A stretch of 23,390 nt of DNA from a virus. Taxonomy: Duplodnaviria; Heunggongvirae; Uroviricota; Caudoviricetes. The position numbers were made by a program, and so were the translations under genes. Numbering within the stretch: the stretch's first letter is position 1; each line of letters starts with the position of its first letter. This document shows positions 7,222 to 23,390 of the stretch, in pieces. Location: IMG/VR virus record IMGVR_UViG_2537561977_000031, positions 1-23,390 of that record. The stretch is one strand, 5' to 3'. A model generated the notes under the pieces. That model worked only from the letters and a program-made list of their open reading frames with translations. It searched no databases and was not told the origin of the DNA.

Positions 7222-7374
7222 CACAATCAGACTGATACGCTTGGCTTCATCTTTTGTCAGGTCGCGAGGCAGGTTGCCAATGGTGACGATAAGATCTCCG
7301 CGCAATGGAATCGGCAGTTCAAATGTTTTTACACCAACCTGTACGTCAGCTACCGCCTTCTTCTTAGGTGCCAT
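7222..7374 (-). pseudogene. Unknown early-left gene, C-terminally truncated by IS1 (51 codons remain)
   Basis: GGAG SD 9 nt before ATG at 7374; MAPKKKAVADVQVGVKTFELPIPLRGDLIVTIGNLPRDLTKDEAKRISLIV then reads into IS1. Confidence 0.4.
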
Positions 7375-7715
7375 CTTTTTACGCTCCTTTTTTTATTTAC
7401 ATCACCAACTGACACATTAATCTCACCATTCTGGTAGGAGATAAATTTATCAATAGCACTTTGCATTCGGCTTTTGTATGCCTGCAAAGATGATTCAGAA
7501 GGTTTGCTTTCTGCTGAGTCTGCGTACGAACTTGCTAAGTTGGCAACGCTATAATCACGGATATCGGCATCGGTGAAATCCGACCCAAGAACAGTAAGAA
7601 GGCGCAGGGAAGAGTCACGGAGATTGCGGGCTGTAGCATCATTGACGATACCAAGCTCAGGAAGCATCTGTAAGAAGTCCTGAAATGCTTTGATGGTGTA
7701 GCTTTTGGTTTGCAT
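7350..7715 (-). CDS. Hypothetical protein (121 aa), Arg-rich C-terminus; no SD, ATG directly follows a hairpin/T-run
   Basis: Track ORF; compositionally protein-like; start context unusual. Confidence 0.4.
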   Translation of the reverse strand: MQTKSYTIKAFQDFLQMLPELGIVNDATARNLRDSSLRLLTVLGSDFTDADIRDYSVANLASSYADSAESKPSESSLQAYKSRMQSAIDKFISYQNGEINVSVGDVNKKRSVKRWHLRRRR

Positions 7716-19203: not shown

Positions 19204-19388
19204 ACGCCACAATTCAAACGATACCAGAGCTTCTTATCCAGACACGAGGCAATCAGACCGAAGTGGCGAGGATGCTTTCCTGCGCAAGAGGAACAGTGCT
19301 CAAGTACAACCGAGACAGCAAAGGCGAGCGTCACGTAATAGTTAACGGCGTCCTGATGGTCAAACAGGGCAAGAGGGGAAGACGATGA
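19200..19388 (+). CDS. ninH: NinH-like small DNA-binding protein
   Basis: 62 aa; ...IPELLIQTRGNQTEVARMLSCARGTVLKYNRD... resembles lambda NinH. Confidence 0.65.
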   Translation: MNATIQTIPELLIQTRGNQTEVARMLSCARGTVLKYNRDSKGERHVIVNGVLMVKQGKRGRR

Positions 19389-20008
19389 GACTCGAAAGCG
19401 TAGCTAAATTTCATTCGCCAAAAAGCCCGATGATGAGCGACTCACCACGGGCTACGGCTTCTGACTCTCTTTCCGGTACTGATGTGATGGCTGCTATGGG
19501 GATGGCGCAATCACAAGCCGGATTCGGAATGGCTGCATTTTGCGGTAAGCATGAACTCAGCCAGAACGACAAACAAAAGGCTATCAACTATCTGATGCAA
19601 TTTGCACACAAGGTATCGGGGAAATACCGTGGTGTGGCAAAGCTCGAAGGAAATACTAAGGCAAAGGTACTGCAAGTGCTCGCAACATTCGCTTATGCGG
19701 ATTATTGCCGTAGTGCCGCGACGCCGGGCGCAAGATGCAGAGATTGCCACGGAACAGGTCTGGCAGTTGATATAGCCAAAACAGAGCAGTGGGGGAGAGT
19801 TGTCGAGAAAGAGTGCGGAAGATGCAAAGGTGTCGGCTATTCAAGGATGCCAGCAAGTGCAGCATATCGCGCTGTAACGATGCTAATCCCAAACCTCACC
19901 CAACCCACATGGTCACGCACTGTTAAGCCGCTGTATGACGCTCTGGTGGTGCAATGCCACAAAGAAGAGTCAATCGCAGACAACATTTTGAATGCGGTCA
20001 CACGTTAG
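19385..20008 (+). CDS. Q: Late antiterminator Q (lambda-type, 207 aa)
   Basis: MRLESVAKFHSPKSPMMSDSPRATASDSLSGTDVMAAMGMAQSQAGFGMAAFCGKHELSQNDKQKAINYLMQF... matches lambda Q as I recall it. Confidence 0.95.
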   Translation: MRLESVAKFHSPKSPMMSDSPRATASDSLSGTDVMAAMGMAQSQAGFGMAAFCGKHELSQNDKQKAINYLMQFAHKVSGKYRGVAKLEGNTKAKVLQVLATFAYADYCRSAATPGARCRDCHGTGLAVDIAKTEQWGRVVEKECGRCKGVGYSRMPASAAYRAVTMLIPNLTQPTWSRTVKPLYDALVVQCHKEESIADNILNAVTR

Positions 20009-20050: not shown

Positions 20051-20079
20051 TTGACTTTTTGAATAAAGTTGGGTAAATT
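20051..20079 (+). promoter_or_regulatory. Late promoter pR' (lambda-type) with adjacent qut region
   Basis: -35 TTGACT (20051-20056), 17-nt spacer, -10 TAAATT (20074-20079); flanking sequence matches lambda pR' as I recall it. Confidence 0.7.
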
Positions 20080-20268: not shown

Positions 20269-20343
20269 GGGTCAGTCGTATAAAGGTCATTACGGAAGGC
20301 TGTTAACCTTCTTATCGTGGTTCGAGTCCACGCTGTCCCGCCA
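20269..20343 (+). tRNA. tRNA-like gene, anticodon GTT (Asn) by manual fold; one U-U mismatch in acceptor stem and a 3-bp D stem
   Basis: Acceptor GGGTCAG/CTGTCCC, anticodon stem GAAGG/CCTTC with loop CTGTTAA, T arm CGTGG-TTCGAGT-CCACG, discriminator G, encoded CCA. Confidence 0.5.
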
Positions 20344-20348
20344 AATAT

Positions 20349-20424
20349 GCTGGTTTAGCTCTAATGGTAGAGCAGTCGCCTTGTAAGCGAATGGGTAGCG
20401 GTTCAAGTCCGTTAACCAGCACCA
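20349..20424 (+). tRNA. tRNA gene, anticodon TGT (Thr) by manual fold
   Basis: Perfect 7-bp acceptor GCTGGTT/AACCAGC, D arm GCTC-TAATGGTA-GAGC, anticodon loop CTTGTAA, T loop TTCAAGT, encoded CCA. Confidence 0.65.
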
Positions 20425-20540: not shown

Positions 20541-20756
20541 ATGAAATCCATGGACAAAATTTCAACGGGCATTGCCTACGGCACCTCCGCCGGCAGTGCC
20601 GGCTACTGGTTTTTGCAGTGGTTGGATCAGGTCAGTCCGTCACAGTGGGCTGCGATTGGTGTGCTGGGAAGTCTGCTTCTGGGGCTTCTGACTTATCTGA
20701 CAAATCTGTATTTCAAAATAAGAGAAGACAAGCGTAAGGCTGCGCGGGGAGAGTAA
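20541..20756 (+). CDS. S: Phage-21-type pinholin S21 with dual start (MKSMDK...), 71 aa
   Basis: [71 protein letters not shown]; SD GGAGGTGAGG before ATG 20541. Confidence 0.85.
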
Positions 20757-20760
20757 TTCA

Positions 20761-21177
20761 ATGACACAAAACTATGAACTGATTGTGAAAGGGATCCGCA
20801 ATTTTGAGAATAAAGTTGCGGTAACTTTAGCGTTACGGGACAAAAAACGCTTTGACGGTGAAATTTTTGACCTGGACATCTCGCTGGACCGTGTTGAAGG
20901 TGCCGCGCTGGAGTTTTATGAGGCAGCGGCCAGAATGAGAATCAGACAGGTATTCCTGGATGTTGCTGCCGGGTTATGTGAAGGGGATGAGCAGTCGCCG
21001 GAAAAGCGCCCCATAATTTTAGAGGCGCAGAATGTGTGGATAACCTACAAAGGAAAGCTACCGGGAAGAATTACTGGTTCTCTGAAGACGCCACCGACGG
21101 CATTGCGGTCAGAAAAAGATGATATTGAATCGCCCATTGAAAAACTGGAGAAAATTGTCGGTGCTGATTCCTTCTGA
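20761..21177 (+). CDS. Hypothetical protein (138 aa) inserted between holin and endolysin
   Basis: Track ORF beginning 5 nt after the holin stop; no family recognised. Confidence 0.6.
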   Translation: MTQNYELIVKGIRNFENKVAVTLALRDKKRFDGEIFDLDISLDRVEGAALEFYEAAARMRIRQVFLDVAAGLCEGDEQSPEKRPIILEAQNVWITYKGKLPGRITGSLKTPPTALRSEKDDIESPIEKLEKIVGADSF

Positions 21178-21185
21178 AGATGAAA

Positions 21186-21215
21186 AACGCCGCGATGAGC
21201 AGTTTGCGGCGTTTT
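21186..21215 (+). terminator. Weak candidate terminator after the 138-aa gene
   Basis: Hairpin AACGCCGC...GCGGCGTT followed by TTTT. Confidence 0.3.
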
Positions 21216-21608
21216 ACGATTATTGCATTGAAGTTACTCGCAGGAATTTTGTGAAGATTTTTGAGGAGGGTAAATCTCTTCAGTAAGCTTAATGGCGGAC
21301 GCTGCAATTAATTCAGGAAGGTCCGCAAGGTCATCTGTCAGTGGATATGATGAAAAAATCGGCGGCAGTTCTGTTAAGAAGCGCTTTAACTAATTCCTTT
21401 TCCTTCTCCGGCAACAAGTTGATTAGAGCTACGACTGCTTGCCTGAGTGCGATTAAATCAGCAAAAGTTTGTTTTGGTAGATTTGTGTAATCCGTAGTCA
21501 CCTCTGTGTTTATCAGATTGACATCCTCCTCCCGCCAGTGCCCATCACTGGCGAGGTAAGATTTAACATATCCGGGGATTTGAAGCCGATAAATCCTGAT
21601 AAATATCC

Positions 21609-22142
21609 ATGAACGTAAAAATCAGATATGGCCTGTCGGCTGCCGTTCTGGCACTGATTGCTATCGGTGCGCCTGCGCCTGATATTCTCGACCAGTTTCT
21701 GGATGAAAAAGAAGGTAACCACACTACGGCATACCGCGATGGTTCCGGCATCTGGACCATCTGTCGGGGTGCCACGATGGTGGATGGTAAACCCGTTTTT
21801 CCCGGTATGAAACTGTCGAAGGAAAAATGCGACCAGGTTAACGCCATTGAACGTGATAAGGCGCTGGCATGGGTGGAGCGCAATATTAAAGTACCACTGA
21901 CCGAACCACAAAAAGCGGGTATAGCGTCATTTTGCCCCTATAACATTGGCCCCGGTAAGTGTTTCCCGTCGACGTTTTATAAGCGGCTGAATGCCGGTGA
22001 TCGTAAGGGCGCATGCGAGGCGATTCGCTGGTGGATAAAAGATGTTGGGCGCGATTGCCGCATACGTTCAAATAACTGCTATGGACAGGTTATTCGTCGT
22101 GACCAGGAAAGCGCATTAGCCTGTTGGGGGATAGATCAATGA
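21609..22142 (+). CDS. R: SAR endolysin (T4-lysozyme-type muramidase with N-terminal signal-anchor-release segment)
   Basis: N-terminal [16 protein letters not shown] weakly hydrophobic segment; catalytic-region pattern [22 protein letters not shown]; no obvious SD upstream. Confidence 0.8.
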
Positions 22143-22606
22143 GCAGAGTCACCGCGATTATCTCCGCTCTGGTTATCTGCATCATCGTCTGCCTGTCATG
22201 GGCTGTTAATCATTACCGTGATAACGCCATTACCTACAAAGAGCAGCGCGACAAAAACGCAAGAGAACTGAAGCTGGCGAACGCAACCATTACTGACATG
22301 CAGCAGCGCCAGCGTGATGCTGATGCACTCGATGCTAAATACACGAAGGAGTTAGCTGATGCGAAAGCTGAAAATGATGCTCTTCGGCGCAAGCTTGATA
22401 ATGGTGGTCGGGTGCTCGTCAAAGGAAAATGCCCTGTGCCATCCTCAGCCGAAACCTCCAGCGCCTCCGGCATGGGCAATGATGCCACCGTCGAACTCTC
22501 TCCAGTTGCTGGACGAAACGTTCTCGGTATCCGGGACGGAATCATCAGCGACCAGACAGCATTGAGAATGCTTCAGGAGTACATCAGGACTCAGTGCCTG
22601 AAATAA
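22139..22606 (+). CDS. Rz: Rz i-spanin
   Basis: [49 protein letters not shown]... matches lambda Rz N-terminus; ATG overlaps endolysin stop. Confidence 0.9.
22359..22565 (+). CDS. Rz1: Rz1 o-spanin lipoprotein, embedded in the +1 frame of Rz
   Basis: [23 protein letters not shown] lipobox followed by Pro-rich segment [11 protein letters not shown]. Confidence 0.8.
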
Positions 22607-22808: not shown

Positions 22809-23390
22809 ATGAACAAATCATTAACCGTTCTTCCTTCTGGCGAATACCCGACCATGAGCAGTCTTGAGATGGTGGATTACATTAATGCTGATCGGAAATC
22901 CAAAGCGGAGGCGGAGGGGCTTGCGTTCCCCTGTAAGAAATATCGCAAACTCGAACACCGCAGTTTCATGAAGAAAGTACCCAGGGTCCTCGGGGATGCA
23001 GCTGCAAAATTTTTTGCAACTGATACCTATATCAACGGAACAGGTGGTGTTGTGGAGAGGGATATTTGCAATTTTCCCAAGCGTGAAGCTTGCCTCATGG
23101 CAATGAGCTACAGCTATGAGCTTCAGGCGCAGGTGTATGACCACATGACGGAGCTTGAGGGCGGGAAGGACATTAACCTCCTCGATTTCTCTGGCCTGAC
23201 CGATATGGCAATCAGCGAAATGCAAAACCGTGTCGCGGCTGCTGAGAAGTTCTCATTTGAAATGCACGGTCAAGCAGGTAGCGCTCTCATGACTCGTCGG
23301 AAGAAAGAGAAGAAGGCCATTAAAAAGGCTGAGCAGCTTGTGAAGGATCTGATTCAGTTCAAGCTATGTGACATGGGGGAGTTTCCCTGA
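22809..23390 (+). CDS. Rha-like phage regulatory protein (193 aa)
   Basis: MSSLEMVDYINADRK... and ...CLMAMSYSYELQAQVYDHM pattern resembling the Rha domain; stop at the window end. Confidence 0.5.
   Translation: MNKSLTVLPSGEYPTMSSLEMVDYINADRKSKAEAEGLAFPCKKYRKLEHRSFMKKVPRVLGDAAAKFFATDTYINGTGGVVERDICNFPKREACLMAMSYSYELQAQVYDHMTELEGGKDINLLDFSGLTDMAISEMQNRVAAAEKFSFEMHGQAGSALMTRRKKEKKAIKKAEQLVKDLIQFKLCDMGEFP

Follow-up and report, generated by a model that had tools for sequence, protein, structure and literature searches.

The window, that is, the whole stretch of 23,390 nucleotides analysed here, contains the late region of a lambdoid prophage. The gene for the antiterminator Q (19385-20008) is followed by a pR'-like promoter (20051-20079) and then by a terminator-like hairpin, and the genes for tRNA-Asn and tRNA-Thr (20269-20424) are located between this promoter and the holin gene S. 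Gene S (20541-20756, + strand) encodes a class II holin (pinholin) of the phage 21 type with a length of 71 residues (PF04971, Phage_holin_2_1; E 1e-35), and the locus of FDAARGOS_944, which is nearly identical, carries the annotation 'class II holin family protein' for it. The N-terminus of the holin reads MKSM, and the second methionine codon, at position 20550, is a possible alternative start. Further downstream lies the endolysin gene R (21609-22142, + strand; PF00959, E 7e-24), whose 177-aa product is annotated in relatives as 'lysozyme' or rrrQ and has a hydrophobic N-terminal segment, from which we infer that it is an endolysin of the signal-anchor-release kind. Next comes an Rz-type spanin gene (22139-22606, + strand; PF03245, E 2e-30), and a 68-aa open reading frame (ORF) embedded in it (22359-22565) is likely to be Rz1, judging from its lipoprotein-like N-terminus. 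All three components, a PF04971 holin, a PF00959 lysozyme with a hydrophobic N-terminus and an Rz with an embedded, putative Rz1, are present in this cassette. The Q-dependent late transcript has the order Q, pR'-like promoter, the two tRNAs, S, ydfR, R and Rz. An earlier note on this DNA had supposed that the region between the holin and the endolysin genes is co-expressed with the late genes, which agrees with the gene order and with the presence of the pR'-like promoter.

The minimal lysis cassette of the DLP12 prophage of Escherichia coli K-12 (S-R-Rz/Rz1) has the same holin family, PF04971, and an Rz with an embedded Rz1, as does the window. There is no intervening gene between essD and rrrD in DLP12, however, and rrrD has a length of 498 nt, versus 534 nt for the endolysin gene of the window. 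Compared with this cassette, in which the two genes abut, the window does contain extra DNA, as the earlier note had claimed. It consists of an ORF of 138 codons followed by 431 bp (21178-21608) that separate the stop codon of this ORF from the endolysin ATG at 21609.

The YdfR family gene downstream of the holin gene

The 138-aa ORF (20761-21177, + strand) begins with an ATG codon that is separated by 4 nt from the holin stop codon (TAA, 20754-20756), and a Shine-Dalgarno-like sequence, GGGGAGAG, is located 7 nt 5' of this ATG. The earlier note was right in placing an ORF of this size just after the holin stop, but its description of the product as a protein of unknown family did not hold. 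The protein matches the Pfam family PF07041 (DUF1327, YdfR) with a score of 136.6 bits (Pfam cut-off 25; E 3.3e-40), the match spanning positions 1-92 of the 93 in the profile, and it matches the PHROGs 2091, 406, 1085 and 2735. Moreover, the nearest genomes, including FDAARGOS_944 (99.5%-identical locus), carry the RefSeq label 'YdfR family protein' at the same place. The DUF1327/YdfR family is already known: Pfam, PHROGs and RefSeq cover it together with its position and its variants, and its genes are routinely found next to those of class II holins.

This gene is common. DNA encoding the N-terminal domain of YdfR is present in 4031 of the 5426 complete E. coli genomes (~74%), with up to nine copies per genome, and a module formed by its C-terminal extension and a convergent gene, orf86 (see below), is present in 352 of them. 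In lambdoid late operons ydfR is located directly downstream of the gene for a class II (S21-type) holin, in the window and its relatives alike. The YdfR of the Qin prophage of K-12 (b1555, P76160) belongs to the same family, and its gene is part of the order essQ-ydfR-rrrQ, in which it starts 4 nt after the stop codon of the holin gene essQ, as in the window. The N-terminal ~70 residues of the two proteins are nearly identical, and in both cases the next gene is the same rrrQ-type lysozyme gene, preceded by the same ~12 nt before its ATG. On the other hand, the K-12 protein has only 103 residues and its stop codon overlaps the lysozyme start (ATGA), whereas the lineage of the window is characterized by a different middle part, a 176-aa product, an ORFan on the opposite strand and an uncoupled leader of 76 nt; in addition, the window copy is frame-broken.

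The idea that the ORF is an unusual insert was not upheld either, given its presence in about 74% of the complete E. coli genomes and its annotation since K-12 (b1555). We conclude that ydfR belongs to the standard equipment of prophage lysis cassettes in E. coli, though extra with respect to the minimal cassette; it is not universal in holin-endolysin cassettes, because cassettes without ydfR exist, such as that of K-12 DLP12. The earlier note had named, as the case that would speak against it, relatives in which the gene is a conserved, standard part of the cassette and has a known function; standard and conserved it is, but a known function it does not have.

The 72-aa core that is conserved in the family (Y5, V9-K10, E46-G-A and EFYE 51-54 are invariant in the alignments) is fully preserved in the window ORF. 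When 1.84 billion representatives were searched exhaustively with the profile, only 102 clusters of the YdfR family were found, the most distant members being free-standing proteins of 72-76 aa, whose extent is that of the same core. Searches for the genomic context of these distant members, both alignment-based and by single-protein locus, yielded nothing, and a tblastn search for distant YdfR members in the phage collection returned E. coli phages only. The AlphaFold2 model of the 176-aa protein has a mean pLDDT of 54.7 and is confident for residues 1-70 only, which are arranged as strand-strand-strand-helix. Scans of YdfR and of the orf86 product with NCBIfam and PADLOC gave no match. The sole match in a sequence profile search of the PDB was a marginal one between the C-terminal extension and the BRCT domain of PARP-1 (E 0.007), which we dismissed as compositional noise.

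Frame breaks in ydfR and in the convergent gene orf86

Comparison with relatives shows that the window ORF is a shortened form of a longer gene. The loci of phages 2H10 (183-aa YdfR) and PhiR5_1 (211 aa), and of FDAARGOS_944 and CFSAN029787 (176 aa), have the same architecture as the window and are 94-99.5% identical to it (94% in the case of 2H10). In all of these, as well as in C25, the ydfR stop codon corresponds to window position 21286, and the products have 176, 183 or 211 residues. The alignments, the list of blastn indels and a repair test all point to the run of four adenines at 21151-21154 (+ strand), which has six adenines in FDAARGOS_944, CFSAN029787, C25 and 2H10. This shortfall of 2 nt shifts the ydfR frame after residue 131. 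Residues 1-131 of the window protein are authentic, and over this length it is 100% identical to the 176-aa protein P0002; the last seven residues are out of frame. The displaced 3' part of ydfR (21155-21286, + strand), which encodes the C-terminal extension ...KLSVLIPSEDEK(K)RRDEQFAAFYDYCIEVTRRNFVKIFEEGKSLQ up to the stop codon, is now in the frame of a 55-aa ORF (21119-21286). A second run, at 21183-21187, has five adenines here versus eight in the relatives, a change that is in frame. When both runs inside ydfR are restored, the resulting protein is identical to P0002, an allele found unchanged in E. coli and Shigella, on 463 contigs.

A third run is located outside ydfR, within the remnant of an 86-codon ORFan on the opposite strand, which we refer to as orf86 (21234-21495, - strand; PHROG 2572, corresponding to a hypothetical protein of the WP_001306174 type in RefSeq). 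This gene is convergent with ydfR and overlaps its 3' end by 53 nt. The run at 21353-21358 has six adenines in the window versus five in the relatives, which causes a +1 frameshift of orf86, and the start codon of the window copy (21493-21495) reads ACG instead of ATG. An intact 86-aa orf86 is present in 2H10, PhiR5_1, C25, OkiPb01691 and JNEC-KY204, and is absent from FDAARGOS_944 and CFSAN029787, which share the ATG>ACG change with the window. The intact products match phrog_2572 over positions 1-86 of 86 (E 1e-53), which the window copy, with its defects in start codon and frame, does not. What is left of the broken gene is a minus-strand frame of 56 aa (21331-21501) with a GTG start, the same frame that the earlier note had described as lacking a good start.

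Within this module, then, the lengths of three A-runs are all that sets the window apart from FDAARGOS_944 and CFSAN029787, these being A4, A5 and A6 in the window and A6, A8 and A5 in the relatives with a long YdfR. An in-frame deletion of 21 nt in ydfR is common to the window, FDAARGOS_944 and CFSAN029787, and both this deletion and the ATG>ACG change of the ORFan unite the window with the group having a 176-aa YdfR. The full-length 176-aa frame of these nearest relatives is absent from the window copy. The stretch of ~430 bp in which the earlier note had seen no convincing ORF is real as far as its length is concerned (431 bp), but relatives carry the 3' third of ydfR and the 86-aa convergent gene at this position, and it is degraded coding sequence of these two genes. 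The normal state of the locus in this lineage is an intact ydfR of 176 codons, whether the lesions are errors or mutations.

The convergent gene itself has a limited distribution and appears to be weakly constrained. A word-indexed search identified homologues of orf86 in 14 sequence clusters only, nearly all of them from E. coli. The indels among these homologues are all in frame, the variable sites are distributed 7/2/11 over the three codon positions, and codon differences are 3-5 synonymous versus 7-8 non-synonymous, a pattern suggesting that purifying selection on orf86 is weak at best. AlphaFold2 predicts three helices (pLDDT 73), and no informative structural neighbour of this model was found. 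The label DUF1823 (PF08853) that orf86 has received in records of PhiR phages is unsupported, with scores of 13-15 bits (E 0.02-0.1) that fall short of the cut-off of 25. In the relatives, a Shine-Dalgarno sequence, GAGGTG, precedes the ATG of orf86 by 5 nt. A scan for sigma-70-like promoters upstream of orf86 revealed none at the threshold used, neither in the window nor in 2H10.

A hairpin that the earlier note had reported behind the 138-aa ORF was confirmed at 21183-21215 (AAAAACGCCGC-N12-GCGGCGTTTT). It has a 10-bp stem with six G-C pairs and a 12-nt loop, a predicted free energy of -18.7 kcal/mol, and a fold z-score of -4.9 for the + strand and of -4.1 for the - strand. Read on the minus strand, the hairpin comes 18 nt after the stop codon of orf86, and a run of T residues follows it (T8 in relatives including 2H10, T5 here). 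Judging from this position, orf86 probably has its intrinsic terminator here, within the ydfR coding sequence. Our terminator scan, which was limited to loops of up to 8 nt, missed the hairpin.

Lambdoid phages are known to contain morons, for instance bor and lom; these are additional genes, inserted between conserved phage genes, each with a promoter and a terminator of its own. The orf86 gene resembles these in that it is likewise additional, has a ribosome-binding site of its own and a hairpin similar to a terminator, and is present in some cassettes only, unrelated genes taking its place in others. Unlike morons, it is antisense to the late operon and the scan detected no promoter for it. 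It might be regarded as a moron-like cargo gene.

The slot between ydfR and R and the endolysin leader

The size and content of the region between ydfR and R vary among phages. In the short type of cassette, exemplified by vB_EcoS-689R5, YdfR has 116 residues and R starts 63 nt later; the long type contains ~460-485 bp more, between about window position 21097 and 21558-21581. YdfR has 268 residues in phage 86 and 72 in phage Evi, and these two phages carry, at the position of orf86, different opposite-strand ORFans (phrog_1853 and phrog_25324) without pairwise similarity. In Stx2_14040, the module encoding the C-terminal extension (phrog_36381) is present without the DUF1327 domain. The slot between ydfR and R holds unrelated cargo ORFans in different phages. 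The proposal that the extra DNA carries a cargo gene or a lysis regulator is supported in its first part by this observation; for its second part, nothing ties the gene to the timing of lysis.

The right-hand border of the slot is formed by a conserved, AU-rich leader of the endolysin gene (21533-21608, + strand; ~76 nt), recognized in the alignments. As the earlier note had stated, the endolysin ATG has no Shine-Dalgarno sequence: no such motif is present in the leader, including the 20 nt 5' of the ATG (ataaatcctgataaatatcc). The leader begins with a perfect 8-bp hairpin, CGCCAGTG-CCCAT-CACTGGCG (+ strand; fold z -4.6), which had also been noticed before but which is located at 21533-21553 rather than at 21530-21550. 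The hairpin is conserved in phage 86, Evi, Stx1_14040 and PhiR5_1, and it marks the exact point at which sequences that are unrelated further upstream converge into the leader. Analysis of covariation in seven phages revealed single-sided changes only and no compensatory ones; the variants have G.U pairs on the + strand in three cases and a C-A mismatch in Evi, and neither strand is favoured. A search of Rfam with permissive thresholds over 21100-21700 gave no match with an E-value below 0.3.

In the Qin prophage of K-12, the last ~12 nt of the leader constitute the 3' end of ydfR, and the ydfR stop codon overlaps the start of R (ATGA). The absence of a Shine-Dalgarno sequence in front of R looks like a legacy of translational coupling to ydfR. 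A 24-aa ORF on the + strand (21538-21612), which overlaps the start of R with ATGA, was considered as a leader peptide for coupling and was rejected, since an indel of 1 nt in leaders of the PhiR5_1 type breaks its frame.

Taking the locus as a whole, we have little doubt that the region is an accessory slot in a phage-21-type lysis cassette (pinholin plus signal-anchor-release endolysin) of a defective lambdoid prophage of E. coli/Shigella, and that a YdfR family gene, a convergent ORFan and a conserved leader jointly provide the best explanation of what was observed there. The view of the earlier note, according to which an unrecognized cargo gene or lysis regulator, together with a non-coding regulatory spacer, was inserted between the holin and the endolysin genes, appears very unlikely in comparison. 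It can draw on the fact that holin and endolysin genes adjoin in DLP12, on the different ORFans that occupy the slot in different phages, and on the function of YdfR being still unproven. Yet the family is a defined one (PF07041), named for the K-12 gene and present in 74% of the E. coli genomes, the supposed spacer is frame-broken coding DNA, and PADLOC, NCBIfam and Rfam all remained without a match.

Origin of the frame breaks and possible role of YdfR

Whether the A-run changes arose in the prophage or in its sequencing can be judged from their distribution. The exact 138-aa product is encoded on one contig only, ADUP01000053.1, among 153 billion gene positions. This contig belongs to a draft assembly (GCA_000188815.2, a whole-genome shotgun (WGS) project of 2011) and does not differ from the window in the 5630 nt that were compared; no mention of the accession GCA_000188815.2 was found in the literature. 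Over 20.6 kb, the window and the FDAARGOS_944 prophage differ by 24 substitutions and eight indels, and all but one of the latter are changes in homopolymer length. Three of the five homopolymers of at least 7 nt differ from FDAARGOS_944, all of them being shortened, while three runs of 5 nt are lengthened. Elsewhere in the window, such changes split a 968-aa gene with a toprim domain and truncate a 177-aa gene.

We favour sequencing error over slippage private to this prophage because such a large proportion of the long homopolymers (three of five) differ from the nearest genome, and we consider it probable, though far from certain, that homopolymer miscalling in an early draft is the source of the A-run changes. 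Miscalling is also indicated by the steps of -2 and -3, by the shrinking of long runs while short ones grow, by the constancy of the runs in relatives that are up to 6% divergent, and by the singleton product. It is nevertheless quite possible, if less than probable, that the frame breaks are real and that slipped-strand mutations at the A-runs have cost ydfR its C-terminal third and the prophage its orf86, as part of ordinary decay of a cryptic prophage; the identities of the genes would be the same. Long homopolymers are quick to mutate in vivo, and a complete genome has an independent frameshift at the same A8 run (P0073). Moreover, the prophage lineage is defective, with ISEc20 inserted within a gene of the replication region and several partial genes in the FDAARGOS_944 copy (99.7% identical), and the ATG>ACG change in orf86 is a genuine substitution common to FDAARGOS_944 and CFSAN029787, so that orf86 was already decaying. 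Mutation, however, usually proceeds in steps of +/-1 at such runs, not of -2 and -3, and it would have to account for a change in 60% of the runs of at least 7 nt at a substitution divergence of 0.12%, for the constancy of the same three runs across relatives up to 6% divergent, and for a 138-aa product that is unique among 153 billion gene positions and comes from a WGS draft of 2011.

That all three window-specific changes in the module fall in A-runs, including an A8, and that the frameshift at the A8 run in the second genome (P0073) gives an alternative tail that is hydrophobic, might suggest that the A-runs of ydfR and orf86 are functional slippery tracts, serving as phase-variable switches or generating alternative C-termini by transcriptional or ribosomal slippage. 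We regard this as extremely improbable: the 176-aa allele is present without variation on 463 contigs, the run lengths are constant across relatives spanning 6% divergence, similar homopolymer changes affect unrelated genes elsewhere in the window, and runs of 5-8 nt are shorter than those usually tied to efficient slippage. Returning to miscalling as the probable source, the finding is an ordinary one, namely a common accessory gene and a small opposite-strand gene, both broken by A-run changes that are confined to one draft assembly.

The interest of the locus lies in the protein family rather than in this copy. A two-hybrid screen by Göpel et al. (2026; PMC13232886), in which RNase G served as the bait, yielded residues 1-72 of K-12 YdfR. 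In the two-hybrid assays of the same study (PMC13232886), K-12 YdfR interacted with residues 1-597 of RNase E: the full-length protein gave a signal, and an interaction was also reported for its residues 1-72. In addition, RNase E 1-598 co-purified with tagged full-length K-12 YdfR, RNA was present in the YdfR eluates, and over-expression of K-12 YdfR changed few transcripts (PMC13232886). No functional studies of YdfR/DUF1327 other than this one were found in the literature, where the term DUF1327 turned up in a single paper. The link to RNase E comes from one paper and from over-expressed K-12 YdfR, which has only its N-terminal ~70 aa in common with the window protein. Even in its shortened form, the window protein retains the 72-aa core that matches the part of K-12 YdfR for which RNase E binding was reported.

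YdfR would be translated, like S, R and Rz, from the late transcript that Q antiterminates. Because its conserved core corresponds to the part of K-12 YdfR for which binding to the catalytic N-terminal half of RNase E was reported, and because co-purification with RNA was reported for K-12 YdfR, its most likely role would be that of a late modulator of host RNA decay or of an RNA-binding factor. We tentatively suggest, as a reading that is open to considerable doubt, that YdfR, expressed late, binds RNase E and/or RNA and is not a lysis protein. Another phage protein, Dip (gp37) of phage phiKZ, binds the C-terminal scaffold of RNase E. The interaction reported for YdfR is with the N-terminal half instead, and the structural match between the two proteins is far too weak for homology. 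A more specific version of this idea, which we consider unlikely as it stands, is that the members of the YdfR family, as late proteins, use the 72-aa core to dock on RNase E, at its catalytic half, and on RNase G, and so protect or reprogram late mRNA before lysis, with the variable C-terminal tails and the ORFans of the slot tuning this activity.

For the annotation of prophages, the present case implies that when a short ORF followed by an empty spacer is encountered in an older draft, the homopolymer lengths should be compared with those of relatives before a biological reading is attempted. As a discovery, the window has little value, and the interest that remains concerns the YdfR family as a whole: a gene present in about three quarters of the E. 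coli genomes, in a very well-studied cassette, is still without an established function. If the proposed docking on RNase E were true, the commonest uncharacterized gene of E. coli prophage lysis cassettes would represent a new class of viral modulators of RNase E.

Homopolymer changes and the annotation of ydfR

Two further genes of the window carry lesions whose homopolymer signature is that of the A-runs in the region of ydfR, the gene located between holin and endolysin. The gene for a toprim-domain replication protein is split on the plus strand into two pieces (12260-13996 and 13933-15165) by a T7>T6 change near position 13967; compared with this, its counterpart in the prophage of Escherichia coli FDAARGOS_944, the closest relative, is unsplit and encodes 968 aa. 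On the minus strand, the gene for a 177-aa hypothetical protein (7350-7715) is cut short by a T8>T7 change near 7388. The A8 tract of ydfR itself may be recurrently unstable: P0073, a 172-aa YdfR variant from a complete E. coli genome, has an independent frameshift at this run, which generates a hydrophobic alternative tail (…DEKNTAMSSLRRFTIIALKLLAGIL).

In all five RefSeq loci examined, long ydfR is labelled by the PGAP annotation as a pseudogene of 336-342 nt with a "missing C-terminus" (L003, 3221-3556; L004, 3212-3547; L005, 3221-3556; L010, 446-781; L011, 362-703). Because the frame is intact and reads through to 176 or 183 aa in each of the three loci checked (those of strains FDAARGOS_944, CFSAN029787 and C25), this label looks like a systematic annotation artefact.

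Replication region, immunity RNAs and window ends

Relative to FDAARGOS_944, the window contains a 21-nt tandem duplication (GGTGGGGCAGGAGCTGCCCGG) at about position 10219, within a helix-turn-helix gene of the replication region; the FDAARGOS_944 copy of this gene is interrupted by ISEc20. Rfam matches above the gathering score identified isrK (16826-16899) and C4 antisense RNA (16926-17010) on the plus strand, directly upstream of the antirepressor genes, an arrangement that is a P1/P7-type immunity element, and sRNA-Xcc1 on the minus strand near the left end (2121-2209). At the right end, a 193-aa ORF downstream of Rz (22809-23390) reaches the end of the window; an IS600 copy is inserted at the equivalent site of the closest relative (L007, 26094-27249). 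No structural (head and tail) genes were seen within the window.

Variable segments in and near the lysis cassette

The late-operon leader encodes tRNA-Asn(GTT) (20269-20343) and tRNA-Thr(TGT) (20349-20424) between pR'/tR' and the holin gene. The tRNA set at the equivalent site varies among relatives, being Ile-Arg-Thr-Gly in CFSAN029787 and Thr-Gly in phage vB_EcoS-689R5.

Upstream of the endolysin gene, a plus-strand 24-aa ORF (21538-21612) has a GTG start inside the hairpin at the left edge of the conserved endolysin leader and ends in a TGA that shares bases with the endolysin start codon (ATGA). Since a 1-nt indel in PhiR5_1-type leaders breaks this frame, the ORF is unlikely to encode a coupling peptide.

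The slot between ydfR and this leader holds mutually unrelated ORFs on the opposite (minus) strand, which differ from phage to phage. Those of three phages encode 104 aa (L012, 1594-1908), 98 aa (L013, 854-1150) and possibly 233 aa (L015, 517-1218), and none of the three has a Pfam match. In its behaviour, the ydfR-endolysin slot is a hotspot at which antisense cargo accumulates.
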